From: Mayamaea pseudoterrestris
Lineage: Eukaryota
Assembly (NCBI GenBank): GCA_027923505.1
Contig: BROI01000039.1
Span: forward strand, 62,001 to 126,000
Reading direction: 5' to 3'
Length of the DNA stretch: 64,000 nucleotides
This document shows, piece by piece, positions 1 to 36,600 of the stretch. Position 1 is the first letter of the stretch, and the number at the start of each line of letters is the position of its first letter. The position numbers were made by a program, and so were the translations under genes. The notes under the pieces are model-generated. The model was not told where the DNA came from, made no database searches, and saw nothing but the letters and a program-made list of their open reading frames with translations.

Positions 1-111
1 CTTGGCTCGACTGGGCCATGCGCAACTTTTGACAATGAGCCACTTTGCGACCAGGACACGTTTGAAATTGTAGACTTGGAGATTTATGGGTATCTCATCG
101 GACAGTTCTGA
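1..111 (+). CDS. 3' end of a TLDc-domain protein (gene starts before the window)
   Basis: Frame 1 reads LGSTGPCATFDNEPLCDQDTFEIVDLEIYGYLIGQF*. This is the TLDc C-terminal pattern and closely resembles the end of the ORF at 13106 (GTTGHCVTFNNEPLCDETIFAIEDLEVFGFLVGTF). Confidence 0.8.
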   Translation, partial: LGSTGPCATFDNEPLCDQDTFEIVDLEIYGYLIGQF

Positions 112-5604: not shown

Positions 5605-5932
5605 TTGCTGCTCTTAGATTAAAGCAGACTATGTACTTGCGATGCTGTACTTCCTATATGAGAGACACGACTTGCACCGCCATCGCCATGGTCGAGACGA
5701 GTTGCACAAGGCGCGGCGGCGATCGGCCGCGCCAACCAGAAACCGTCAGCGACGTGGCGCACTGTGCCGCAGAGAGTACAACCAAGCGTTGAGCCTCACA
5801 TGACCGCACAATCCAAGTGTGCCGCAAACCCGGAGAGCCTGGGGAGATTGATGGTGCGACAAGCCGACTGCCTTTCATTTTTCAAAGCAAACCACACGAC
5901 GCAAAGCATCAACAAGCAAGCGTCTGTTAGTC

Positions 5933-6465
5933 ATGTCGAATTCGAATTACCCTCCAACACTGCATAACCATATTCTGCATTTACTGGAGGATCAGAAGCA
6001 GCAGCGCGAGGAGATTCCCGACAGGAAACGATTCGGCGTCTCGGCCGCAAGTTTACTTCTTACACACAAGAAACGGCGGCTGACTGAGACGAAACTTCCT
6101 TTTGAACAAGGGAAGGAAGAATTGAGCGAATCCGTAGTGGGAGAAGATGCCGAGGCTAAAGCTATGGATGTTCCTGATATGGCCTATTATCAAAAACTAA
6201 AGGATGAATGTCAACGCCAAGAACGCGAGCAGGAGCAGTGGGCTCGAGAACGACTGGAAAAGGTTCATGACCTGCGAAAGGTGTACCTATTCGGCCTCTC
6301 AAAAGTGTGAGTGAGCTAGAAAAGCCGAAATGATGCTTTTTGCAAGCGAAACGTCTCTAATCATCATGTTGTCTGTCTCACAGATCGGCTCTGCAAGACC
6401 TTCGGACTGCTCCAGACGCTATATTGCCTGGAAACATCGTACAGCCGCAGAAGAAGAAGAAGTAA
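5933..6465 (+). CDS. Small hypothetical charged/coiled-coil protein, 2 exons (intron 6307-6383), copy 1
   Basis: 125-aa ORF; a GTGAGT...CAG intron extends it in frame to ...VSALQDLRTAPDAILPGNIVQPQKKKK*. Confidence 0.6.
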
Positions 6466-6689
6466 ATATGTATTTACATTACTTAATTACAGTTGCTTCC
6501 TCCGTACAGTCAGGAAAAGCGCGACATGGTTGCCATCATCGTCGGCGCCCGCCAGCATGTTTGTGGTGAGCGACTTGCCTTTCGTCGAGTCACCTGTCTT
6601 AGCAACGCCTCCACATACCTTCACGCCATTCATAGATAATTCTAAATAATTGTAAATCTTTCTAATGCAACCAATTGGAGCTGTAGGGA

Positions 6690-6960
6690 TGCTTACGTAG
6701 CGCTTGACTCGTCTTTGTAACGGCGAGCTGAACATCAACCGGAAACCATTCATATACTCCTTCGCCCTCGCTGCCTCATCACATCATGAACCTTTGTCCA
6801 CGGTTCATTATTGTTTAGAAAATGCTTTGGCCAATTAGTATGCGATAGCGTTTTGGAACGCTTCGATAGATAGTCTTGCAACAAGCCGACACATACTTGG
6901 ATGTATTGTGTTCCTCTCACGCTTCTTGATCAGAGCGCCTCTTCCACAGAGAATGCCTCG
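6690..6960 (-). pseudogene. Degraded DUF6824-type domain remnant, copy 1
   Basis: Minus-strand fragments ILCGRG...HP, GQRFM and EWFPVDVQLAVTKTSQALR fit the diatom-expanded DUF6824 pattern (LCGRG...GGRFL...W..V...A..K.SQALR). They are interrupted by stops (TAA, TGA TGA) and a frameshift. Confidence 0.55.
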
Positions 6961-7639
6961 ATTAGTGTACGGTAACGATACTGAGTCTTTGCCAGTAAGA
7001 GATTCTGTTGTTGAGTGCTGCAAGGGTGCATGGTTGCCGCTGTATCGTGGTGGGCAACCAGCGGATGAACATGATTCACCGTGGGTTGTATAATGGAAGA
7101 AATGATGCCGGAACATCGTGTTTTCCCGTTATCTTGTTTCCGTTGTTTGATATCGCAAGAGATTGGCCTCAAAGAGCAAGCTAAGGCCTGCCCCTCTTGT
7201 GCCTGCAACCGATTCGTCAACTATACACGTTGGTTTGTCCGCCATATTCCATATTCAACTCAATGCACGCGGTCGCTTCCATTGGCACGCAGCATAGTTC
7301 GAATTGATGCCTGGCTGCTCGTTGACATGGCAGCTGGTTAATGTGTTGGCGCCGAGAGTTGCATGTTCTGCGTACTTTGGAAGAAATACGAGATAATGAC
7401 GAATGGCGAGGCATCGTCGTCGTCGCCGCCAGCGAATCATGCATTGGGTCTACAAAATCCGACATGCCGCTAAACATTGTTTTAATTTCACCACGTTTTC
7501 CGAGGCTCAGCCAGTGACAAACTCCTTTCTTGCTGCCGATGTGCTCAGGTCGATCCGCCACCAAGTGGTTCATGGATCTTGGATGATGGCGAGAATCTTT
7601 CGCGATACATCGTCACAGCGGTTCTGCATGGCTATTGTC

Positions 7640-8017
7640 TTGTGACGCAGTTTTCACTGGCACTTGTTTCGTATTATTGCCTCAATGACGTAGTTTTCAC
7701 TGGAACTCGTTTCGTATTATTACCTCAATGACGTCGTTTTCACTGGCACTCGTTTCGAACTATTGCCTCATGACGTATTTGACACTGGCACTCGTTTCGT
7801 AATATTGCCTTAAAACGTATTTGACACTGGCACTCGTAACAACTATTGCCTTGTGACGGGATTGAAAATATCACTCGTTTGACTATTGCCTTGTGACGTA
7901 ATTGACACTGGCACTTGTTTCGTACTATCGCCTTGTGACGTAATTGACACTGGCACTCGTTTCGTATTATTGCCTTTTGACGTAATTGACACTGGCACTC
8001 GTTTCGCGTTGACGTCA
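7640..8017. repeat. ~42-bp minisatellite (~9 units, consensus TGACGTAATTGACACTGGCACTCGTTTCGTAYTATTGCCTTG), copy 1
   Basis: Visible tandem units. TGACGT occurs at 7686, 7729, 7771, 7894, 7936, 7978 and 8010, with 42-43 bp spacing between adjacent intact units. Confidence 0.9.
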
Positions 8018-8116
8018 TCAACGGTTTTGCATGCCAACGTCTCGACCATGGCACAAATTCACCGCAACACGCCTCGCGTCCTACTCTCACTTGCAGGGCT
8101 ACTGTAATCTACCACC

Positions 8117-9024
8117 ATGCCTACATCGTACAAAAATTCATTCACGGCTAGTCTCCGTGAACGCCTCCATCTCGATCGCTCTCGCATTACCGAATGGGCC
8201 GAGCATGAAAAGGAGCATATTGACGTTCTAGCCGAGCGCCATCGATCGCAGGCCATGGAAAAGCAGGCATCCTTGGATGCATCCATGACGCAATATTTGA
8301 CGCTTAAAATGCAAGCCGACTGCAAGGTCCAGGAAGCGGTTCAGGCTCAGGGAACTATTGAAGAGTTGCAAGGGCAATCAGAGGAGCGGTCGCATGAGAT
8401 TGCTGCTCTTGAAGACAAATTAAACGAGCACCAAACAGCAATGCGGGGTAAGGAAAAAGGAAGTAAATTGGAATAAATGTAGATTGGCTCAGAATCTCAT
8501 ATTGCTTGGATTATATCTGTCTCTCCAGAACTCCGACTGGATTTGATTGACGAGAAGCATGCTGTCCAGTCGGCTAGACGAGGTTTGGAGGAAACGCAGA
8601 CGAGCCCCAACGCGGAGCTTGACATAATTCAGCGACATATCAAGCGCTTCAATTTTCTTGGTATTGATTTTGAGAGTTCCGAGAACAGCGTATTGCGGTG
8701 AGTGCCTTTGATTCACCTCCTGCTTGTGTGGCTGACTCCGTAACCTTTTTCAACACGAATTTGTACTAACGCGCACCCTTCTCTTGCCGCAGTTTCATCT
8801 TTACTCTCATTGATCCCAATAATCCTGAAAAAGAGTTTTGGATAAAACTGACAACCAACGACGAGGATGACTGGGTAGTCACGGATTACGAGCCGGGCTT
8901 ACACGAAGCTTTGGTCGATGAATGCTTGAACGAATTGAATGACGTCGGAGATGGACTACTGCAGTTTGTCAGGAGCATACGCCAACTCTTTGTTGCGAGC
9001 ATAAACAACAAAGAGGAGGAGTGA
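8117..9024 (+). CDS. SPC25: Kinetochore Ndc80-complex subunit Spc25, 3 exons (introns 8448-8528, 8698-8792), copy 1
   Basis: N-terminal coiled coil. The spliced C-terminus FLGIDFESSENSVLRFIFTLIDPNNPEKEFWIKL...WVVTDYEPGL...LNELND..DGLLQFVRSIRQLF matches the Spc25 RWD pattern. TACTAAC branch point at 8764. Confidence 0.85.
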
Positions 9025-9167
9025 TGGACACAATGTAGCGTTGCATGTGTAACTGCATTTGCAGGTTGTCGTCGGCAGCAAATACGAAGCTTACGTGCAG
9101 TAGATAATTATTAATGGTTTTGAATTATATGCTTGCAAGTTTTTGGTAGTAGCTGGGTTTCTATTAT

Positions 9168-9743
9168 TCAAAAGGTTCCGACAAGGAAACCAAAAACCTC
9201 CAAGTCTTCAATAGCAAAGATTGTCTCATCACACAAGGGCTCGTTGTTGAACGTGACGCAATGGCCAGTCGTACCGATCTGGAAGTGCCGCTCAATCACC
9301 AAGCCAAATGCAGTCTGTCCAAGGTCATCGCTGCCTCCTCCAAAAGCTATCCGTTGATTATTTGCATCGCATAGTTGTACAAACCGATTGACGCCGGACC
9401 ATTTATACGGAATGACAGTGCCGTCATACATCTTGTACAAACAGGCCGATGGACCGCCAACAAATTGAGGTGCGTTCTGCCATTCAGCATCGGCAAACGC
9501 CCCTAACAAGGACCCCTTGGTGGTCCGAATAACGATCAGTGTACGAGACTGACCCTTGACGCACTCCATAAAGGCCGCGAAGGAATCTCCGTCGCGCGAG
9601 AGGCGATACAGTCGTCTCCATGGACAGTAAGTAATTCCCTTTGGTATGATCAGCTCAGCGATTTGCTGCATCTCTTTGGTGGAAAGCAGGTACGCATACT
9701 GATCATCATCATTGTCTTTCACGACGCGGACAGGAGGAATGTA
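9168..9743 (-). pseudogene. 5'-truncated duplicate of the TLDc half of the ALG8-TLDc ORF, created by the duplication breakpoint
   Basis: Identical to 13106-13681. The upstream in-frame sequence comes from the start of duplication copy 2, not from ALG8. Confidence 0.75.
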
Positions 9744-9870
9744 GCACAATCCAAGTGTGCCGCAAACCCGGAGAGCCTGGGGAGATTGATGGTGCGACAA
9801 GCCGACTGCCTTTCATTTTTCAAAGCAAACCACACGACGCAAAGCATCAACAAGCAAGCGTCTGTTAGTC

Positions 9871-10403
9871 ATGTCGAATTCGAATTACCCTCCAACACTG
9901 CATAACCATATTCTGCATTTACTGGAGGATCAGAAGCAGCAGCGCGAGGAGATTCCCGACAGGAAACGATTCGGCGTCTCGGCCGCAAGTTTACTTCTTA
10001 CACACAAGAAACGGCGGCTGACTGAGACGAAACTTCCTTTTGAACAAGGGAAGGAAGAATTGAGCGAATCCGTAGTGGGAGAAGATGCCGAGGCTAAAGC
10101 TATGGATGTTCCTGATATGGCCTATTATCAAAAACTAAAGGATGAATGTCAACGCCAAGAACGCGAGCAGGAGCAGTGGGCTCGAGAACGACTGGAAAAG
10201 GTTCATGACCTGCGAAAGGTGTACCTATTCGGCCTCTCAAAAGTGTGAGTGAGCTAGAAAAGCCGAAATGATGCTTTTTGCAAGCGAAACGTCTCTAATC
10301 ATCATGTTGTCTGTCTCACAGATCGGCTCTGCAAGACCTTCGGACTGCTCCAGACGCTATATTGCCTGGAAACATCGTACAGCCGCAGAAGAAGAAGAAG
10401 TAA
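9871..10403 (+). CDS. Small hypothetical protein, copy 2
   Basis: Identical to 5933-6465 (+3938). Confidence 0.6.
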
Positions 10404-10627
10404 ATATGTATTTACATTACTTAATTACAGTTGCTTCCTCCGTACAGTCAGGAAAAGCGCGACATGGTTGCCATCATCGTCGGCGCCCGCCAGCATGTTT
10501 GTGGTGAGCGACTTGCCTTTCGTCGAGTCACCTGTCTTAGCAACGCCTCCACATACCTTCACGCCATTCATAGATAATTCTAAATAATTGTAAATCTTTC
10601 TAATGCAACCAATTGGAGCTGTAGGGA

Positions 10628-10898
10628 TGCTTACGTAGCGCTTGACTCGTCTTTGTAACGGCGAGCTGAACATCAACCGGAAACCATTCATATACTCCTT
10701 CGCCCTCGCTGCCTCATCACATCATGAACCTTTGTCCACGGTTCATTATTGTTTAGAAAATGCTTTGGCCAATTAGTATGCGATAGCGTTTTGGAACGCT
10801 TCGATAGATAGTCTTGCAACAAGCCGACACATACTTGGATGTATTGTGTTCCTCTCACGCTTCTTGATCAGAGCGCCTCTTCCACAGAGAATGCCTCG
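10628..10898 (-). pseudogene. Degraded DUF6824-type remnant, copy 2
   Basis: Identical to 6690-6960 (+3938). Confidence 0.55.
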
Positions 10899-11577
10899 AT
10901 TAGTGTACGGTAACGATACTGAGTCTTTGCCAGTAAGAGATTCTGTTGTTGAGTGCTGCAAGGGTGCATGGTTGCCGCTGTATCGTGGTGGGCAACCAGC
11001 GGATGAACATGATTCACCGTGGGTTGTATAATGGAAGAAATGATGCCGGAACATCGTGTTTTCCCGTTATCTTGTTTCCGTTGTTTGATATCGCAAGAGA
11101 TTGGCCTCAAAGAGCAAGCTAAGGCCTGCCCCTCTTGTGCCTGCAACCGATTCGTCAACTATACACGTTGGTTTGTCCGCCATATTCCATATTCAACTCA
11201 ATGCACGCGGTCGCTTCCATTGGCACGCAGCATAGTTCGAATTGATGCCTGGCTGCTCGTTGACATGGCAGCTGGTTAATGTGTTGGCGCCGAGAGTTGC
11301 ATGTTCTGCGTACTTTGGAAGAAATACGAGATAATGACGAATGGCGAGGCATCGTCGTCGTCGCCGCCAGCGAATCATGCATTGGGTCTACAAAATCCGA
11401 CATGCCGCTAAACATTGTTTTAATTTCACCACGTTTTCCGAGGCTCAGCCAGTGACAAACTCCTTTCTTGCTGCCGATGTGCTCAGGTCGATCCGCCACC
11501 AAGTGGTTCATGGATCTTGGATGATGGCGAGAATCTTTCGCGATACATCGTCACAGCGGTTCTGCATGGCTATTGTC

Positions 11578-11955
11578 TTGTGACGCAGTTTTCACTGGCA
11601 CTTGTTTCGTATTATTGCCTCAATGACGTAGTTTTCACTGGAACTCGTTTCGTATTATTACCTCAATGACGTCGTTTTCACTGGCACTCGTTTCGAACTA
11701 TTGCCTCATGACGTATTTGACACTGGCACTCGTTTCGTAATATTGCCTTAAAACGTATTTGACACTGGCACTCGTAACAACTATTGCCTTGTGACGGGAT
11801 TGAAAATATCACTCGTTTGACTATTGCCTTGTGACGTAATTGACACTGGCACTTGTTTCGTACTATCGCCTTGTGACGTAATTGACACTGGCACTCGTTT
11901 CGTATTATTGCCTTTTGACGTAATTGACACTGGCACTCGTTTCGCGTTGACGTCA
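11578..11955. repeat. ~42-bp minisatellite, copy 2
   Basis: Identical to 7640-8017. Confidence 0.9.
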
Positions 11956-12054
11956 TCAACGGTTTTGCATGCCAACGTCTCGACCATGGCACAAATTCAC
12001 CGCAACACGCCTCGCGTCCTACTCTCACTTGCAGGGCTACTGTAATCTACCACC

Positions 12055-12962
12055 ATGCCTACATCGTACAAAAATTCATTCACGGCTAGTCTCCGTGAAC
12101 GCCTCCATCTCGATCGCTCTCGCATTACCGAATGGGCCGAGCATGAAAAGGAGCATATTGACGTTCTAGCCGAGCGCCATCGATCGCAGGCCATGGAAAA
12201 GCAGGCATCCTTGGATGCATCCATGACGCAATATTTGACGCTTAAAATGCAAGCCGACTGCAAGGTCCAGGAAGCGGTTCAGGCTCAGGGAACTATTGAA
12301 GAGTTGCAAGGGCAATCAGAGGAGCGGTCGCATGAGATTGCTGCTCTTGAAGACAAATTAAACGAGCACCAAACAGCAATGCGGGGTAAGGAAAAAGGAA
12401 GTAAATTGGAATAAATGTAGATTGGCTCAGAATCTCATATTGCTTGGATTATATCTGTCTCTCCAGAACTCCGACTGGATTTGATTGACGAGAAGCATGC
12501 TGTCCAGTCGGCTAGACGAGGTTTGGAGGAAACGCAGACGAGCCCCAACGCGGAGCTTGACATAATTCAGCGACATATCAAGCGCTTCAATTTTCTTGGT
12601 ATTGATTTTGAGAGTTCCGAGAACAGCGTATTGCGGTGAGTGCCTTTGATTCACCTCCTGCTTGTGTGGCTGACTCCGTAACCTTTTTCAACACGAATTT
12701 GTACTAACGCGCACCCTTCTCTTGCCGCAGTTTCATCTTTACTCTCATTGATCCCAATAATCCTGAAAAAGAGTTTTGGATAAAACTGACAACCAACGAC
12801 GAGGATGACTGGGTAGTCACGGATTACGAGCCGGGCTTACACGAAGCTTTGGTCGATGAATGCTTGAACGAATTGAATGACGTCGGAGATGGACTACTGC
12901 AGTTTGTCAGGAGCATACGCCAACTCTTTGTTGCGAGCATAAACAACAAAGAGGAGGAGTGA
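12055..12962 (+). CDS. SPC25: Spc25, copy 2
   Basis: Identical to 8117-9024 (+3938). Confidence 0.85.
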
Positions 12963-13105
12963 TGGACACAATGTAGCGTTGCATGTGTAACTGCATTTGC
13001 AGGTTGTCGTCGGCAGCAAATACGAAGCTTACGTGCAGTAGATAATTATTAATGGTTTTGAATTATATGCTTGCAAGTTTTTGGTAGTAGCTGGGTTTCT
13101 ATTAT

Positions 13106-15292
13106 TCAAAAGGTTCCGACAAGGAAACCAAAAACCTCCAAGTCTTCAATAGCAAAGATTGTCTCATCACACAAGGGCTCGTTGTTGAACGTGACGCAAT
13201 GGCCAGTCGTACCGATCTGGAAGTGCCGCTCAATCACCAAGCCAAATGCAGTCTGTCCAAGGTCATCGCTGCCTCCTCCAAAAGCTATCCGTTGATTATT
13301 TGCATCGCATAGTTGTACAAACCGATTGACGCCGGACCATTTATACGGAATGACAGTGCCGTCATACATCTTGTACAAACAGGCCGATGGACCGCCAACA
13401 AATTGAGGTGCGTTCTGCCATTCAGCATCGGCAAACGCCCCTAACAAGGACCCCTTGGTGGTCCGAATAACGATCAGTGTACGAGACTGACCCTTGACGC
13501 ACTCCATAAAGGCCGCGAAGGAATCTCCGTCGCGCGAGAGGCGATACAGTCGTCTCCATGGACAGTAAGTAATTCCCTTTGGTATGATCAGCTCAGCGAT
13601 TTGCTGCATCTCTTTGGTGGAAAGCAGGTACGCATACTGATCATCATCATTGTCTTTCACGACGCGGACAGGAGGAATGTAGTCTACATCATCAATTTCA
13701 TCTGGCTTCACTGCAATTGAAAAATCCTTAATAGAAGTTGCGGTTGCATTGGCGACAACGTCATGGACGCTACAATAAATTAGCATGTTGGTTGTTAGCC
13801 TTGCAAAGCACTGAATGAGGCCGGCGGCACATGCCAAACTTGTCACCGCTAAGGGTGCGAATTCCATGCGACCCCAAAATGATATGGGAAGCCCCTCCAA
13901 CATAACAATAACAGCAAACACACCCACTAGAGATACTCCAACCCATGCCTTTTCTGTGTTGCTGGTTCGTCCGACGAATGCGTATAGTGCAGCCATGTAG
14001 GCCATATAGCTCGTCAACTTTAGAAGGAATTCCCTCGGCTCAAACAGGAGCGGAAACAAGCCCAACAATCCCCATGCCGTGGACTCCCACAGCAGTAGTG
14101 TATATTGCTTGTCCAAGGCAGCTAGAAACGTCAGTAGCACAAGTGTCGTCATGATTGCCTTTTCGTGAACGTGGTAGGCAGTCAGGAACGACACCATGGC
14201 CGAGTACGCGAGCGAAAGTAGCAGAAGATGATTGTCGCGTTGCGCGGCCGCCATCCATGCCGCTTTGGCGCCAATCATGAGAAAGAGAAGCATGATCATG
14301 CCGACAATGAAAGGAGAAACATCTGGCAGCGACGCCTGAAACAGCTTGGCAAACACCTTGTCGATGGCCTTGTAAACAGCCCAAACGTTGCCAGCCCAGT
14401 AGTCGTGAACTAGGCCCCGACCAAACGGAAAGAGTCTCGAAGCAATTTGCTTCACTAGCAAAGTCGGCTGCGGCGACGTCATGAGCAGCGGCAAAAAGGG
14501 CGTCATTAAACAATGCAACGTCCCCACTCCCAGTAGCAACAGTCGCTCAATGCTGAATTTGTTCTGCACAAAGCAGAACCTTCTCAGTAAATAGGCAAAA
14601 TACCAGAGCGCCAGTGTCAAGTACAAGTGTTTGAGCGTCAAGAGAATGGCAAATAAGGCGGCACCGACGAGCTGGTAAATGTCGGATGCAGCCGTTGGTT
14701 TGCCGCATCGTAGCTCGAGCTTATTCGCTTGTAGCAGACACGCCACCGATAAGAACAAGACTCCCAACAGCAAACCATTGTATTGAAAGTGGACATGATC
14801 CAGCCATATTAGTCCAGGATTAAGAACTGTGAAGAGAAAGCCAGGCATGCTCATGCTTGCCTCCGACGATTCGACAGCCACTGCCATGGTCCCAGCTCCC
14901 AGCCACAAGACAAGGTCGCCTACGATAACAGTTGATCTCATGAATGCGACGCATCGATTCGATATGGAATCTTTTAGTTCATTGTCATTTAGTAGCTCCA
15001 AACAAGTTTCGTCCAATATGAAACGTTGCAGCAACGTGCGTGTCACGTAGTTGTTGGCGAACGCACTTTCCAGAAAGGCAAAGCCGGGTGGATAGTCGAG
15101 CGTATGCTTCGTTGATACATAAACGTCGTCAAAGTACCATTCGCTCATTGGTAAATGCTTCGTCACTGCCTTCCAATGTCGATGGACGAGAAAATCAGTG
15201 GAATAGTAGGATGGAAAGAGGAGAATTTTGCTGCTGGTTGCAATGAGAAATGTGCAAATTAAAAGCGACTTGTTACTGACAGCAAACGTCAT
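13106..15292 (-). CDS. ALG8: ALG8-like dolichyl-P-Glc alpha-1,3-glucosyltransferase (ALG6/ALG8 family), in frame with a C-terminal TLDc domain
   Basis: YYSTDFLVHRHWKAVT...TLDYPP, DHVHFQYNG, RLFPFGRGLVHDYWAGN and YHVHEKAI motifs with many TM helices. The last ~190 aa (WRRLYRLSRDGDSF...GAFADAEW...FGGG...EDLEVF) are TLDc. Confidence 0.85.
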   Translation of the reverse strand: MTFAVSNKSLLICTFLIATSSKILLFPSYYSTDFLVHRHWKAVTKHLPMSEWYFDDVYVSTKHTLDYPPGFAFLESAFANNYVTRTLLQRFILDETCLELLNDNELKDSISNRCVAFMRSTVIVGDLVLWLGAGTMAVAVESSEASMSMPGFLFTVLNPGLIWLDHVHFQYNGLLLGVLFLSVACLLQANKLELRCGKPTAASDIYQLVGAALFAILLTLKHLYLTLALWYFAYLLRRFCFVQNKFSIERLLLLGVGTLHCLMTPFLPLLMTSPQPTLLVKQIASRLFPFGRGLVHDYWAGNVWAVYKAIDKVFAKLFQASLPDVSPFIVGMIMLLFLMIGAKAAWMAAAQRDNHLLLLSLAYSAMVSFLTAYHVHEKAIMTTLVLLTFLAALDKQYTLLLWESTAWGLLGLFPLLFEPREFLLKLTSYMAYMAALYAFVGRTSNTEKAWVGVSLVGVFAVIVMLEGLPISFWGRMEFAPLAVTSLACAAGLIQCFARLTTNMLIYCSVHDVVANATATSIKDFSIAVKPDEIDDVDYIPPVRVVKDNDDDQYAYLLSTKEMQQIAELIIPKGITYCPWRRLYRLSRDGDSFAAFMECVKGQSRTLIVIRTTKGSLLGAFADAEWQNAPQFVGGPSACLYKMYDGTVIPYKWSGVNRFVQLCDANNQRIAFGGGSDDLGQTAFGLVIERHFQIGTTGHCVTFNNEPLCDETIFAIEDLEVFGFLVGTF

Positions 15293-28449: not shown

Positions 28450-31400
28450 CTACAAAGCGCGCGGCTTCTTGTCGACGACGACAACTTCGACGCTGGAATC
28501 ATCCAACGACGGCCGCTTAAGGCCGGCCTTGGCCGAATGCGCAACAATTTCGACGCTGCTGTCGTCGCTCATAGCAACATCCACCACATATCGCGCATCA
28601 ACGTCATGGAGTGCCTTGGCGAGCAGACTCGCACGACTTTGGACGGCGCGTTTGGACACTCCAATATTTTGCAAGGTGAGTTTTGCAGCAGACTGGGAGA
28701 ATACGTAGAGACGACGTTAGTCATAGCGCGTCTCGTCATCGCAACGCAAACAACTGCTAGCTCAACTTACGACCTCAGTGATACCATAGTCTTGGGTGTC
28801 GAGGTGGACAGAGTTAAAGCCCTTCCGGATAAGCCGCTGAAGCAACAGCATGTCGTGTGCGGCATCTTTTTCATGACCGACACCTACGCCCCTCCATCCG
28901 ATTCCAAGCTCCCACTTTTCAGACGCAACAGATTCACTTGCCTCACTGACAAGCTCAGTAATTAGTGCATCTCTCGTGACAAAAATGTTCCGAAGTCGTG
29001 AAATGACAGCCACTTGTTGCAAAATATTGTAGCAGCCTCGTTTGTCAACGCAGGCAGCAATCACAATGCAATGGCGATCTTCTTCGGGCAAGTCCTCCAT
29101 AAAGTCTTTTGCGGTAAATCCCAACGGAGCACCTGCGCTGTCGACGAGTTCTAAACTTGTACTCCAGCGATGAACTTCAGTTTCCATCCAGTGCAACACC
29201 TTGGGATCCAACCCTATATCGCCTTTCCAAACAGGCAACCCAGGTTTTTTGGAAAGAAAACGTTGTAGCCGAGGAAACATCATTACAGACTTCTTAGCAA
29301 GTTTCTCGGGGTCATCGGCGTACTCGCTAGCCTGAGAACATGCAGCCTCTCTCATGTTGTAGCGACGCTTTGCGTTGTATAGCACTGCTTCCGAATTCCC
29401 TTGAATGCGTCCCTTTGCTTGCTGAACACTCGCCAGCTTCGCCTCTTCCTGCTTTAAGCCGTCTTTCGCACTTTGAATAAGAATCTGACTGAAGCGGTAC
29501 CAAGTCAAAGCGTAGTCGTTGCACGCAACATTTTTCAACAATAATGACTTCCAATCATGTTGCCACACGGGGAGTCCTACTGCACATGCCACTTTCAGTA
29601 TGAGCGTTTCAATTTCAGTAAGATCGAGCAAGTCATCCGAATTTTCTTGGCCTCGTGTGACCACGTACAACTTCCGAGCCGCTGCATCGAAAGCGCGATC
29701 ACCAGATGTCTTTGAGTCGCTTGGAGATTTATTATCGGAGCCAGCAAACGTCTGCAACACATTCGCATCAAGGACCGCCCTTTCAGTAGGAAACATTGCC
29801 TCCTCAGTTTTGCTCGGGATCGGGTCATCGCCCAAAATCACACGAAGCACATTCTTATACAGGCGCGACTTGGTGGAGGTTAGTTCTCGCTTGACTAAAT
29901 CCAAATGATCGACGATTCTTTTCATATCCGAGAAGCGTTCTTTTTGCTGCTTCGCAGACTCGGCTAGTGTTAAGGCCTCGTTTCTGGCAAGCGCGCACAG
30001 ACTCTTTTTTCTATATAAATATTTCTGTGGCGGCGCCTTCATGATTCCGCGGAGAAGCTCGGCCAGAAGTGCATTAATTCGTTGGCTTTGATCCAATACT
30101 GCAAATGGGTACGACGGTTGTTGAATCACTTGTTTCGTTAAGGTGGTAGTAGCCTCCCCAACTGGGTGATGGATCGATTGCCGAGCTAGTAACAGTTTTG
30201 CCCGAGCAAGCAAATCCTTCTGCGAAGGAAGGTCCTGCGCGACATTCGAATCCGGCTCGTGAGCAGCGCTAGCACTTTTCAAAGCCATTTCGTCAACTAT
30301 CCAAGGGAGGTAGAAATTGCCGTCGCCATCTTCACCCGCTTCACTTTCATGCGATTGTTTCAGTCCGTATGCTTTCTTCAGTTCGTCCACTCGTATGCCC
30401 TTCATTTCGTTCAGAAGATCTACGTTAGCGTTGAGAAAAGATGCAGTACGACGAGCGACGGCGAGGACGTCAGTGAAGCTCTCCCTGAGATTTTGCGCCG
30501 AGGGGTCTACGCTCGAGTTGCGCGTACCATCGAAAGGAGGTCCCCATTTCATGCTTGAGTCTTGCGCAATTGCCCGGCAACTCGCGTCTTGCTCAATCCA
30601 GCCATGCTTTGCAATTGCGCAGATCAAGGTGGCATCGTGAGCTACCACCCATTGCGGATGCGGAACTTTTGACTTCCGCTCGACAGTCATCAATGCTGCT
30701 TCAAGCTTATCCGTTACAGAACCCATTGAGGGATTGGCGATCGCTTCTTTGTATAAAGTATTGGCGCTTTCCATATATATACATGTCTTCAAGTTTCTTC
30801 TAGGAAGGCTTACTTTTCTGGGCCTTGTTCGGTCATACAAAAGTTGCAAACAACCGTAGCGCTCCATGAAACTTTGGATCTTATCAGCTGTGACGTTTTC
30901 ATTGTTCAATTCAAGTTCGACTTCACGCTCCTTCAACTCGTGATCTTGGCCACGTCTCCTGTCCAAGTTGTGCAGATCAAGCACGCGGCTGCAAACATGC
31001 TCTAGGTCTGGGTGCAGCTTGCTAGCAGCTTGCATGACGGATTGCTGTGTCCAATACTAACAAGTCGGCAATCTTCGTCAGTTCACTGGTGAATGACATA
31101 ATGAAGGTACTTTGTAGCACTTACCTGCTTATCGTCAAATTCATATTTCGTCTTCCCAGCCTTGTCACCTTCCGTCAACAGTGTTGCTTTCCACCCTCGA
31201 TTCTTTAAAGATTGCCATGTCTGTGCAAAACTAGATGCAATCGCTGAATCCGTTTCTGCCTTGGACTTGAACGTTTCCGGTCGTAGCGTTTGCTCGATTG
31301 AGTCGGAATCTCGTGGCTGGTTTGCTTGCGCGAACGCGACGGCGTCGCACAGAGCCTTATTAATCCAATTTTTGTTTTCTTTCCACAACTCCTCGAACGC

Positions 31401-34400
31401 ATCTTTTGCGATTCTAATTTCTTGGTCAGCTGTAAGTTTTATCAGTGCTGTTCGAGCTAGCATACCTCCGTTTCCAGCGTCGTCTTTAAACGCATCTTTT
31501 GGTGGTTCCATCTCACGTTTCCGGCGCTTTGCTATGACTTCAGCCACACTTTCAAGAAAGGTCATAAATATGACGCTCCACATCATGCGATGAACCTAGA
31601 AGCAGAATGAATGAGTAGTGGTCGCGCCGTACACGAACTGGACCAAGAATGGCTGTCGTTAAGACTTACCTCTTGGTCAGGGAATGAACTGCGTGGACCA
31701 GCAGCCTTGAACAACTCGATGATTCGACAATTGTAGCCATGGGTAGACATCAGCTTTATGATGTGCTCAAAGTCTCCTCTCCCCCATTCGCCCTTCTCCG
31801 GAACGCCTCCCCATCGGTATCGTTCCTGATCTCCTTGTTCGTTGTTGTCATCGTCATTCTCATTCGCGTCAGATGCATCCGAATCCGACACCAAGAGAGC
31901 ATCCTCGACGTCTGCGGCCAACGCCGTTTCTGCGTACGACTTCATCTTAAATTTCTCTCGACGCGATGTCAAAGCTTCCTGCAGCACAGCCTCAACGGCC
32001 GTCTCACCGACAACTTTCTTCCAAAATTCAGGATCATCAACATCTAGGCAGATAAACGCATCAGAAACAATGATTGTAGATCAATCGTCATATTCAACTC
32101 ACCTACGTCTTCATAATTGACATTCCCCGAAGCGTCCGGCGACTTCGCCACTTTGAAGCTGGCTTTTGAAAAAGTACTGCCAGCAGCAGACCTATTAGTG
32201 CCATTGGTACCTTCGTGTACAACAGTCCGCGCATGCCGCTGCATAATCGTGTCAATGTCTTGCTGAATAAATTCGTTTGATTCATCTTCAGCCTTCCCCT
32301 CTTTATCCTCCTTAAAGATCTCATAGGCACCATTGCGAAGTAATCTTTCGATCTCTTCCTTTGACAGCGCGCCCTCACCACTGGCGCCAACCTCAAATCC
32401 ATTTAACACTGCCTGGTCAAGACCCATCTTTAAGCTTGCCATATGGAACATCTGGACTTCATATGTCTTGCGGGTCAGCAGGCGATATACCTAAATAGAT
32501 TGCACAGAAGTGTCAGCAGAGTGTGACGCCCACGATAATGGCACCAATGTAAGCACGAACCTTTACGCTCTTGGTTTGACCAATGCGATGACACCGTCTA
32601 CAGTTTGGAAGAACAGAAGATAAGATAGAAAAATTAGCCGATGCGTTCAACGACTGTCTTAATCTCCGTAGCATACTTACGCTTGTCTGCGTCGCAACAG
32701 ACGAACAAAAAAGGGAAGGAAGTGTGAGCATTAGTATGCAAAAAAGTGGTTTGGTAACGCAATCTCCTGCACTGTAACGTACGCTTGTCTGCAGCATCGT
32801 GAAAAGAATGAGAAGAAGAATAGACGGTGCGTTAGACGTGATGCCAGGGACAAACAAACAAATTTTACCGGCATGTATGACCTACAAGTCGGCCTGTGGG
32901 TTCCAGTCAGAGTCAAAGATAATTACCGTGTCCGCTGCAGTGAGCGTTATACCAACCCCACCGCTGCGAGTGCTCAACATCATAATAAACGGCGACTCCC
33001 GTCCCTCGGTAGGCGGTGCCTGAAATCGATCAATCGCCTGCTGCCGTCTGTGGCCCGTAACTGAACCATCAATTCGCTCAAATACCATATGTCTTGATTT
33101 GAAGTAGTCTTCAAGAATATCAAGCATAATCTTGAACTGCGAGAACATGAGGACACGGTGCCCTTCTTCCTTCAGACGCGGTAGCAGTTTATCGAGTAGC
33201 ACAAGCTTCCCCGATGCCTTTACAAGGAGATCAGCTTCAGATAGACTTTTATTCTCTGCTTGGGCTCGAATAACATCCTCGACGCCATTCAAAAGGAATG
33301 TATGGTTGCAGCACTTGCGCAACTGCATCGCGAGATTGCTAAGACTCGGCCCATCCATCGCCTTCTTCTTCGTTTTGTGGAGAAACCCGACATTCTTCTC
33401 GTACAGCGCGCGGTAGTACTGCTTCTGCATCATAGTCATTTCAATTTCAATTAGCGTCTCTTCCTTTGGTGGCACCGACTTCTCCACGTCTTCCTTGAGG
33501 CGTCGTAGAATAAACGGTCGGATCTCTTCGTGAAGCCCATCAATTGTTTCTTTGCTTTTCATATCAGCATACTTGTCATTGAAGTCATCTGGGTCCGCGA
33601 ATTGATGAGGTTCAATGAAATTTAATAGCGTCCAGAACTCTGAAATTGAATTCTGCAGTAAAGGAATCGTATTTCATAAGGGCATTTAGACACCACAGCC
33701 TATTAGACATCGAGAGGATTACATCCAGCGCGTACCTGAATTGGGGTCCCAGTGAGCAGGAGCTTAAAATTGAAAGAGAACTTTGGGTCGCGCAGCTTGA
33801 CTGCCAGTTTTGACGTATGATTCTTTAAACGATGGGCCTACAGCGACGAGCACGTTTGTCAGAATGTGCAAAAGACGAGAATTAACCACATCAACAATCT
33901 TACCTCATCGACCACCAAGCACTCCCATTCTACAGCAGTTAGCTCACTGACATCGTCGGCGATCATCATTTCAGGCGTCGTCAAAACAACGTCGACCATC
34001 CAGGGACAATCCGTCTTGGTGCGCTTGGGTGAACCGCACTTCTTAAGGTAGAGTTGATTGATGCCGACAGTTTGAGACGGACGGTCATCGTGGTACGCAA
34101 ATTCATGATAACGTAAGTGTTTCCTATCATTCGCTGAGCCGTAGTAGACAATAGTGTTCAAATCGGTCCACGCCTGAAATTCACGTTTCCAGTGAATCAG
34201 TGTCGACAAAGGAGCTATGATCAAAATGGGCCCAAATACACATATCTGTTTGATTATAATGTTCATTGAAGCGGCAGTTTGAAGCGTCTTGCCGAGGCCC
34301 TGAGACAGCGAGTCGATGTAACGTTAAGCGGATTGAAATGCATACGGCAATTACCTCGGCGATTATGTGTTTGCAACTTACCATCTCATCCGCAAGAATA

Positions 34401-36005
34401 CAAGAACGATTGTTGATATAATTAGAAAGCATCCAAGCAACGCCTTCTGCCTGATAATCACGAAGCTGGCCGCCATTTTTAAATTCAAGATTCTGAAGCG
34501 CGAGCTTGTACTCCTCCACCGCTTCTTCCTTGCTTTGTGCGTCAATGGGGCTCTTTTCGCCGAAAATCTTATACAATCGACGCCGTTCCTTTTCGCAAAC
34601 TCTGAGCAACTCTCGCGTGACCGACTTTTTTGGTTTTGTCCGTCGCCGAATAAAGCCTTTCACCTCGTCCTTGTAATCAACGTCTGCGAGAATTAGATCC
34701 CTTTCAAACTCATATGATGCGTCGTCATAACATGTGTTACCCCACTTGACGAGGAACTGCCGACCCGTTCCTTGGTCAAAATCCTTGTGCAGTCGATCCA
34801 AGATTATACCATAATCCTCTAGTGTCGCCTTGTCTTCATTCTCAATCGTCAATGCAGGGCAGCCATCTAGCGGCTCAACATCCAAAATGCGCTCAATCTG
34901 CGTCCATGCCGGATCGAAGTAGTCTCCGTCGCATCGTTCGTCCGCTGACAATAGTACTCCATTACTCATCTTTCGAAAGAAGGTTGTCAATTGCGCCTTT
35001 GACTTGTTGAGCGTATAGCTGTCCAAATCGACCTGCGTCTCCCAAGAGCAGTGAAGGTAGCTCAAGTCACTCCACTTGACGAGGAAGCGTTCCTCAAACA
35101 CATTCTCCATGTCAACTGACGGATCGACTTCTTGATGCCAGCGACTGCCCGTATCAATCTCTGAGGTTTGAATTTTAGCGCAGATTGCTCTCCATGTTGC
35201 CAATGTTTCGGTCCGAACAGCCAGAATGCGGTGAACCCTGAGCGGCTCCCCATCCTCCTCCATTTCGTCGTCGTCGTCATCATCCGACTCACTCTCGGCT
35301 GAACCATCATCCGAAAAGGATCCGTCAGCATCTGCATCCATGGCTGTTGTCGAATGGTCCAGTGACAAGCGAGGCTTGGCGTGCCGTCGGGCCGAAGACT
35401 TTGGCGGACTGCCAAGTGAGGCCAAGGAATCGCGAAGACCACTATCCGGCTTATTGCTGCGTTGTAATCCTCCGGTCCTCTTCTTTGCCGGCGGTGGTGG
35501 CGACTCGCTTTCACTCTCATCCGTATCTTCCAACGTTTCTCGCATGGATCGCTTCATGCGAAAGTCTGCGTCGGACGGTTCCGTCATGGTTTTGGTGCAT
35601 TTCGTGGTGCGCGAGGAAATGCGACGATACCCATTCTTGGTTGCCGCAGGTTTCGCAGACCGGCTGCTAGTCTGCGCCGTTCGTGAACTCTTGCGTCGAG
35701 CGACTGGTTCCTCGCTTGATTCTTCTTCCTCGTCTTCGCTCGTGTTTGAGCTTTGATTGTCGTCGTCGACTGCATCCTCGTCGCCAACGCCAGAGGTGTC
35801 GTCATTCTTGTCGTCATCATCGTCTTCACTTGCCGCAACATCTTCATTCTTTGCCAAAAAGTCAGTCTGCTTGATTTGGCGAGTAGTGCGACGGAGGTTC
35901 AGCTCATCCTGCGGTTGGCAAATTGAATTTGGAAGCGTGAGAGTTGTATAACGAGCAGCGTAACGAATGCTCGGCGACATGAGCCAGACTTACGGACGAC
36001 GACAT
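28450..36005 (-). CDS. CHD-family (CHD6-9/Kismet-like) chromodomain SNF2 chromatin remodeler; many exons, including two 6-nt microexons
   Basis: Two chromodomains (FLVKWSDLSYLHCSWE; FLVKWGNTCYDDASYE), [94 protein letters not shown]. 12-nt first coding exon 36005-35994. Confidence 0.92.
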
Positions 36006-36600
36006 GGTCGCAAGTACAACTCAGCCAAGATGCAACAGTCGAATCAATAGGCAAGGCTAGATAAGATGTATTGGTATATTGCTACTGTATGACTGCCTCT
36101 TCTTTCCCAAGCTCGATCATCCAGAGGTGTCGCGGTTGCCTCGATGTTTTCCAAGGTCTCGCCTTGGCGGTTTCGCATTGGGACGAAATGGATGAGGGGG
36201 CGCCCCCGCGACATTACTTTGCTGATGATACAGCTAATTTTTTCGCACCTCTACCCTCGACTTTAGCTATCCATGAGCTAAGTCCACGCAGAATTAGAGG
36301 CCAGCAGAGCATTAATTCTGCTAGGATATGGTCCGAAATTTATCTACAATCCGAACCTGCTAGACCAAGAACCACACTAGCATGCTATGAAAGTCTCATC
36401 AGTCTGAAGCGTAGACCACTGCTGTATATTCGATCTACCCCTACTATGCATCTCTTTTACAAAAGCAAACTTCTACACCCAGTCTCCACAATGAATCTAT
36501 CAAAGCTCAAGCTATCTCCTCTCCGTGGCCAAGAAAAACGGCGACATACTAAGCATGTGATTTGCTTGTGTAAGCAATGTGCATTATTACTTTCTGCCAG

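Follow-up and report, generated by a model that had tools for sequence, protein, structure and literature searches.

We analyzed a 64,000-nucleotide (nt) stretch of the genome of the diatom Mayamaea pseudoterrestris (assembly GCA_027923505.1, contig BROI01000039.1, positions 62,001 to 126,000 of the forward strand), which is called the window below and to which all coordinates refer. On its minus strand the window carries a gene for a remodeler of the chromodomain-helicase-DNA-binding (CHD) type, and within the helicase region of this gene lie two consecutive, identical coding exons of only 6 nt each that are very probably real (Table 1). A model of 13 exons was built from ten joints observed in transcript contigs plus the two microexons, and was then translated. 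Judged by its domains, the product is a CHD-subfamily Snf2 remodeler with a predicted N-terminal chromodomain followed by the SNF2 ATPase and Helicase_C, and the gene is the sole predicted one of the CHD type in the window. The translation was identical over all 2204 residues to a protein deposited at NCBI (P0121, 'hypothetical protein MPSEU_001102900 [Mayamaea pseudoterrestris]'), an entry found at 100% identity when the large C-terminal exon served as protein query. Pfam searches on the deposited protein gave SNF2-rel_dom (PF00176, 7.2e-74) and Helicase_C (PF00271, 1.6e-21). For the Chromo family a single stretch passed (residues 272-302, 3.9e-10), and the hint of a second chromodomain, the stretch FLVKWGN...YEFERDL in the open reading frame (ORF), is by eye only. 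No Pfam family was found in the approximately 1250 C-terminal residues. The protein thus shares with the CHD subfamily the chromodomain, SNF2 and Helicase_C and differs from it in the single Pfam-passing chromodomain and in the domain-free C-terminal part. The solved structures closest to the 262-residue exon were those of CHD1 (9ear_W, 1.7e-68) and CHD4 (6ryr_W, 8.1e-65). Relatives with names at 70-72% identity belong to the diatoms Pseudo-nitzschia, Fragilariopsis, Cylindrotheca, Seminavis and Thalassiosira oceanica, and several relatives at 73-75% identity are labelled 'chromodomain-helicase-DNA-binding protein 7' by the Joint Genome Institute.

Table 1. The CHD-type gene and its microexon site in the window, with introns found in the same segment of related loci (a slash within a codon or motif marks the intron position).
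Feature	Position	Strand	Description
CHD-type remodeler coding region	28450..36005	-	13 exons, 12 GT-AG introns, 2204 amino acids; ATG at 36005, stop codon at 28452-28450
Upstream exon, 767 nt	32886..33652	-	Codes for the last part of SNF2 and the greater part of Helicase_C; ends ...DSDWNPQAD + TT; joints 33652/33736 and 32597/32886
Intron 1, 97 nt	32789..32885	-	GTAGGT...CAG; phase 2 in Leu codon (TT/A); removed in X2-X4 contigs
Microexon 1, ACAAGC	32783..32788	-	Completes a Leu codon (one base), encodes Gln, begins an Ala codon (two bases); present in spliced contigs
Intron 2, 96 nt	32687..32782	-	GTACGT...CAG; phase 2 (GC/A); removed in X2-X4 contigs
Microexon 2, ACAAGC	32681..32686	-	Completes the Ala codon (one base), encodes Gln, begins a further Ala codon (two bases); present in spliced contigs
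Intron 3, 83 nt	32598..32680	-	GTAAGT...TAG; phase 2 (GC/A); removed in X2-X4 contigs
37-nt exon	32561..32597	-	A CGG TGT CAT CGC ATT GGT CAA ACC AAG AGC GTA AAG; joints 32597/32886 and 32488/32559 (cut +2)
Intron 4, 70 nt	32491..32560	-	GTTCGT...TAG; phase 0 between K and V
Downstream exon, 388 nt	32103..32490	-	Starts at 32490; from sequence reading, contig joints and gene model
Relative intron, Ser codon of DSD, S(AG/T)			L064
Relative intron, Trp codon, W(TG/G)			L030, L033
Relative intron, Pro codon after DSDWN, P(C/CG)			L007, L008, L013
Relative intron, after NPQ/			L028
Relative intron, Cys codon of RCH, C(TG/C)			L014, L038, L041
Relative intron, Arg codon of YR, R(CG/G)			L010

The microexon site was delimited by reading the minus strand between 32300 and 33200 and then cutting exons and introns by script. 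The exon, intron and microexon coordinates of a preliminary description, made from the sequence alone, proved exact to the base. Three phase-2 introns split 12 coding nt (TT/ACAAGC/ACAAGC/A), and the reading frame stays open across the joined exons with both hexamers included. Each hexamer is flanked by AG and GT (AG/ACAAGC/GT, twice), with canonical GT..AG introns on either side. The 10-mer AGACAAGCGT (AG-ACAAGC-GT) has only two copies on the two strands of the window together, and they are the ones at this site, with the strand and order that the gene requires. The joined 12-mer ACAAGCACAAGC never occurs contiguously in the window, and an exhaustive search for ways of composing it from AG/GT-flanked pieces within the 288-nt interval between 32886 and 32597 returned one solution, the two hexamers. 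Given the uniqueness of the 10-mer copies and the single decomposition, the two-hexamer arrangement exceeds chance. The conserved motif D-x-Q-A-x-x-R-x-H-R-I-G-Q appears only once both microexons are joined.

Transcript evidence came from four sequencing runs (X1 to X4) of one study, whose library kind is unrecorded; their assembled contigs were compared with the window over 28500-36500, and the nature of each run was judged by the presence or absence of splice joints in its contigs. In contigs of X2, X3 and X4 ten intervals are skipped that have CT..AC ends on the plus strand, that is, GT..AG introns of a minus-strand gene; one of these joints, 35907/35993, is present in X2 and X3 only. One contig of each of the three runs joins position 32597 to 32886, skipping 288 nt and carrying at the joint 12 inserted letters, GCTTGTGCTTGT on the plus strand and ACAAGCACAAGC on the gene strand (contig depths 8.69, 19.1 and 9.6 in X2, X3 and X4). 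The spliced mRNA in these contigs thus reads TT-ACAAGC-ACAAGC-ACGG, with both microexons at the junctions predicted from the sequence, and they supply the QAQA of the SNF2 motif in a chromodomain remodeler as the preliminary description had proposed. No joint carrying 0 or 6 letters between 32886 and 32597 was found in the three spliced runs, in contigs, which drop rare variants. Run X1 gave unspliced contigs only, none with any of the ten CT..AC joints, and one of its contigs spans 32369-32808 ungapped. Since X1 lacks any joined form, a processed DNA copy is not the source of the joined contigs. Contigs of this kind give no abundance, isoform ratios, strand, splicing order or branch points.

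Several differences from the window were recorded in the same contigs. The X1 contig at 32369-32808, which includes introns 4, 3 and 2 and both microexons, has 15 substitutions in 440 nt and no gaps, and the spliced contigs show 5-12 differences in 767 positions. These differences suggest that another haplotype or strain is present whose exons and introns are arranged alike. Two in-frame variants were also seen, one with 3 letters absent at 31981 (an X2 contig) and one with 6 letters absent at 35746 in the acidic N-terminal region (X1 and X2). Ahead of the ATG, at 36205-36246, X1 alone skips 40 nt whose ends (CC..CG) are not those of an intron.

The microexons had been expected to escape gene predictors. 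The identity with the deposited protein, QAQA included, means instead that the public gene model already has both of them. According to the genome paper (Suzuki et al. 2022, PMC9724779), funannotate and RNA-seq reads were used to make the Mayamaea gene models, and the word 'intron' is absent from the main text of that paper, supplements aside. We found no publication on diatom microexons, although the larger set of keyword matches was examined in part. As far as our searches go, the microexon pair is implicit in the deposited gene model and seemingly undescribed in the literature.

The residues encoded by the microexons belong to a motif block at the end of the Helicase_C lobe, which we take to be helicase motif VI. 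The arginines of motif VI in SF2/Snf2 helicases and remodelers contact ATP. Among the 120 best homologues listed, 36 are predictions that break off ahead of the motif or read into an intron. The spacing QA-x-x-R-x-H-R-I-G-Q is invariant in all 84 that bear the motif, and the four residues at the position of the microexons are QAQA in 75, QAMA in six, and QAMD, QAQD and QALS in one each. From this invariance of the QA-x-x-R spacing, a CHD form without QA or QAQA would most likely be catalytically impaired, probably a dead enzyme. Inclusion of the microexons is apparently constitutive.

How such short exons might be spliced was approached by comparing the signals of the 12 introns of this gene. 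Pyrimidines make up 0.75, 0.75 and 0.72 of the final 40 nt in introns 1, 2 and 3 as against 0.50-0.65 in the other nine, so that the three introns around the microexons are the top three of twelve (chance 1 in 220). Their longest pyrimidine runs are 11, 16 and 7 nt, compared with 4-7 in the others. Each of the three has a CTAAY sequence far from its 3' end: CTAAC at 32835-31 in intron 1 (candidate branch A at 32832, 43 nt before the 3' end), CTAAT at 32734-30 in intron 2 (candidate A at 32731, 44 nt) and CTAAT at 32637-33 in intron 3 (candidate A at 32634, 36 nt), with no AG between the CTAAY and the 3' end. Six other introns have a CTRAY sequence, placed 17-24 nt from the 3' end in five of them. 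The AG-free zones of introns 1 and 2 are the longest two of the twelve. No special structure of the pre-mRNA was detected over the 326-nt segment, whose predicted fold, at -77.6 kcal/mol, is equalled by 33 of 100 shuffled sequences (mean -75.0, z -0.55).

On the view given by Choudhary et al. (2021, PMC8378409), steric interference makes microexons too small for exon definition, and they rely on intron definition, by which short introns are recognised by default. Introns 1, 2 and 3 could each be recognised alone by intron definition, through a good 5' site, a distal CTAAY and a pyrimidine-rich 3' region. A 6-nt exon would leave no room for U2AF/U2, serving the intron before it, alongside U1, serving the intron after it, and removal of the introns is therefore probably sequential. 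In the simplest order, introns 1 and 3 would leave first and intron 2 last, by then placed between long exons. The distal branch sites may keep U2 apart from the U1 bound 6 nt further on and so lessen the clash.

We looked for the same introns in related genes. A metagenome scan with the upstream exon aligned to 16 relatives gave 566 pattern matches, of which 302 were confirmed and the best 80 kept; three of these loci (L059, L060 and L074) end before the site, which leaves 77 evaluable. The closest relatives available are about 75-78% identical in the upstream exon. The segment D-x-Q-A-x-x-R is uninterrupted in 74 of the 77 loci, many of which may be transcript contigs, and three loci (L052, L058 and L075) have a single intron at DLQ/AQA, in phase 0; protein P0064 reads into an intron at this same position. 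The comparison of intron positions with relatives, which the preliminary description had proposed as a check, thus brought no counterpart: an intron at any of the three positions of the window, or any microexon, was found in none of the 77 evaluable loci. At least 44 of the 80 loci have an inferred intron somewhere and are therefore genomic. Introns occur nearby at a variety of other positions (Table 1), and the sequence DLQAQGN in proteins P0069 and P0071 suggests an intron one base away from intron 3 of the window. With introns at so many other positions in relatives, positional turnover appears to be quick here. The diatom-like relatives L007-L075 have at least 8 intron places in about 35 codons, residues ~907-941, which hold the last helicase motifs. 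By breaks in tblastn matches, the inferred introns cluster at residues 907-941, ~332, 428-432, 510-524 (near GLGKT) and 990-996; ends of high-scoring segment pairs are approximate, conserved blocks are favoured, and some introns seen by eye were missed by this measure. The absence of these introns and microexons from all 77 relatives makes lineage-specific gains their likely origin, and we infer that three separate gains probably took place in a segment of diverse diatom intron positions. The identical hexamers would then be a by-product of coding for QAQA. Roy and Penny reportedly argued in 2007 for widespread intron gain in a diatom.

The survey of relatives also touched on the quality of their annotations. 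Many of the database proteins (P0007, P0026, P0042, P0061, P0069 and others) end in, or read through, their own introns near the motif, and in the Thalassiosira oceanica entry ARCHRIGQ is replaced by 22 unrelated residues. Public models of the CHD family are often wrong at this motif.

The preliminary description had suggested that the pair could be the trace of a tandem duplication. In such an event some 102 nt, an intron followed by ACAAGC, would have been copied to yield identical microexons and two introns that differ in length by a single nt (97 and 96 nt). Intron 1 with microexon 1 indeed measures 103 nt and intron 2 with microexon 2 measures 102 nt, and 13 nt (GCAG-ACAAGC-GTA) are identical around both microexons, but these shared flanks are splice consensus. 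The interiors of the introns do not bear the idea out either. Introns 1 and 2 are no more alike than unrelated introns, with a local score of 16 against a shuffle mean of 14.8 (reached by 100 of 300 shuffles) and a global score that ranks only 14th among the 66 intron pairs of the gene. Introns 2 and 3 gave a local score of 14 (127 of 300 shuffles) and the 27th global rank. Introns 1 and 3 gave a local score of 24 (2 of 300 shuffles), the match lying in the pyrimidine tracts, and ranked 8th. No similarity of introns 1-3 to the neighbouring exons was found. Of the 67 relatives that code for QAQA without an intron there, 12 have two identical hexamers in this register, three of them ACAAGC twice, and a duplication would moreover insert an extra QA into a motif of unvarying length. 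We consider this origin improbable and, with the similarity tests null, rejected it as the likely one; an ancient event that has since decayed is conceivable.

Another source of three introns so close together would be a mobile element, an introner or transposon whose copies prefer a target of the type ...ACAAGC/AC. Introns 2 and 3 do lie in the same 8-nt context ACAAGC/AC, and introners have been reported from Thalassiosira oceanica, a diatom, and from a Parmales alga, itself termed a marine diatom in the paper (Gozashti 2025, PMC12130899). The three introns are, however, mutually dissimilar, and they have no terminal repeats or target duplications visible by eye. Further copies were found neither in the window (best non-self E value 0.19) nor in the 80 related loci (best E value 0.007 over 25 nt). 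On these grounds, from the window and the 80 loci, we regard an introner origin as very unlikely.

The two microexons could also serve as a splicing switch, as had been proposed from the sequence. Regulated skipping would then yield in-frame CHD isoforms lacking QA or QAQA, which could still bind chromatin, would be ATPase-dead and possibly dominant-negative, and would tune remodeling conditionally. The earlier remark that skipping either microexon keeps the frame is correct, each being 6 nt long. Exon skipping was recorded in 1099 genes over a nitrogen-starvation time course of Phaeodactylum (Rastogi 2018, PMC5859163), and minor isoforms could escape contig assembly. Against this, the 12-letter form was alone in all three spliced runs, with no joint of 0 or 6 letters, and the splice signals of introns 1-3 are the strongest in the gene whereas a cassette exon would be expected to have weak ones. 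The spacing fixed in all 84 motif-bearing homologues likewise argues against tolerated skipping. A frame-preserving toggle of this sort is very improbable in our judgement; were it true, the dense packing of introns would be maintained by selection and not by drift. Our reading of the site does not call for a regulatory role of the microexons.

It is hardly credible that the 12 letters are an artefact, coming from another locus, a retrocopy or an assembly error in the window or the contigs: the runs are of unrecorded kind and from a single study, but the same joint with the same 12 letters recurs in three of them at depths of 8.7-19, the same contigs run on into the neighbouring exons of this gene and depart little from the window (5-12 of 767 nt), no joined form occurs in X1, which is unspliced, an independently deposited protein has the identical sequence, and the hexamers fall exactly between AG and GT.

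We therefore hold it highly probable that the CHD gene contains two real, apparently constitutive 6-nt coding microexons, presumably spliced by intron definition and brought about by lineage-specific intron gains. Some observations weigh against parts of this interpretation. The transcript support consists of contigs of one study with an unrecorded library kind. The signal comparison is limited to 12 introns of one gene; among these, a CTAAT far from the 3' end (50 nt) occurs in intron iD as well, and the AG-free zone of intron 3 is only the sixth of twelve, by a measure that discriminates poorly in short introns. Within this genome, an introner origin was tested on 64 kb only. Finally, with relatives only about 75-78% identical, the age of the introns is not fixed, and they may conceivably have been lost in other lineages.

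Constitutive microexons of this size have precedents in plants. Coding microexons of 1-15 nt are reported to be mostly missing from plant annotations, and the Peptidase M1 genes contain adjacent microexons of 5 and 12 nt that were confirmed in rice by reverse transcription PCR (Yu et al. 2022, PMC8831610). Introns separate the two in Zygnema and land plants, other algae have them fused, and the authors concluded on stepwise intron gain (Feng et al. 2024, PMC11096116). The diatom pair resembles such plant microexons in being apparently constitutive, adjacent, supported at the transcript level (by RNA-seq in the plants), placed in a conserved domain between canonical introns, and fused in distant relatives (PMC8831610, PMC11096116). 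It differs from the plant pairs in its stramenopile host, in that both microexons are 6 nt long and identical, and in that three introns fall within 12 coding nt. Moreover, the plant pairs recur throughout land plants, but the diatom pair was present in none of the 77 sampled relatives, and plant microexons are mostly misannotated whereas the diatom pair is already in the public annotation.

The neural microexons of animals (3-27 nt, dependent on SRRM4/nSR100 and PRP-40) are likewise too small for exon definition and are associated with features of the upstream intron (PMC8378409); a longer region between branchpoint and 3' splice site has been described upstream of them (PMC12871342). They are regulated cassettes with long flanking introns and encode mostly surface loops, whereas the diatom microexons look constitutive, lie between introns of 83-97 nt and encode part of an invariant catalytic motif. 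In Daphnia pulex, intron gains within 10 bases of each other were counted as parallel (Li et al. 2014, PMC4202315). The diatom case is similar in having unrelated introns within a few bases, here 6 nt apart and with at least 6 other positions nearby in relatives. The Daphnia gains, however, lie in different alleles, are datable and often have internal direct repeats, while the diatom introns share one allele, cannot be dated and show only the coding repeat. A further likeness is to recursive splicing of long introns in Drosophila, where a stretch between large exons is removed stepwise (PMC6110457), as would be the case here under the proposed order of splicing. Ratchet points (AG/GT) leave no exon, however, whereas the diatom sites retain 6 nt each and have full signals for each intron. 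The gene structure is rare but of a known type, that of constitutive ultra-short microexons created by intron gain.

Elsewhere in the window, a near-perfect tandem duplication occupies 5800-13688 in plus-strand coordinates. Its unit is 3938 nt, and 5800-9750 matches 9738-13688 with 10 mismatches in 3951 nt. Each copy includes an array of 42-nt repeats (7687-8044 and 11625-11982), and the ORF at the duplication junction, on the minus strand at 9171-9812, encodes a TLDc domain (5.5e-35). This arrangement could be a recent gene duplication or an effect of assembling two haplotypes.

The microexon site also carries a caution for annotation, since without RNA evidence the predicted protein would lack QAQA or be truncated, as in many of the metagenome-derived relatives, which break off at introns of their own. 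The segment of approximately 330 nt offers a compact natural substrate on which one could study the order of splicing, the limits set by steric clashes and what distal branch sites contribute. The diverse intron positions in the segment of diatom CHD genes that holds the last helicase motifs bear on the debate about recurrent intron gain. The CHD gene of Mayamaea represents a transcript-backed case, from the diatom lineage, of three introns within 12 coding nt inside an invariant catalytic motif, and it would mean that an organism with short introns and intron definition can reliably splice two consecutive exons of 6 nt.

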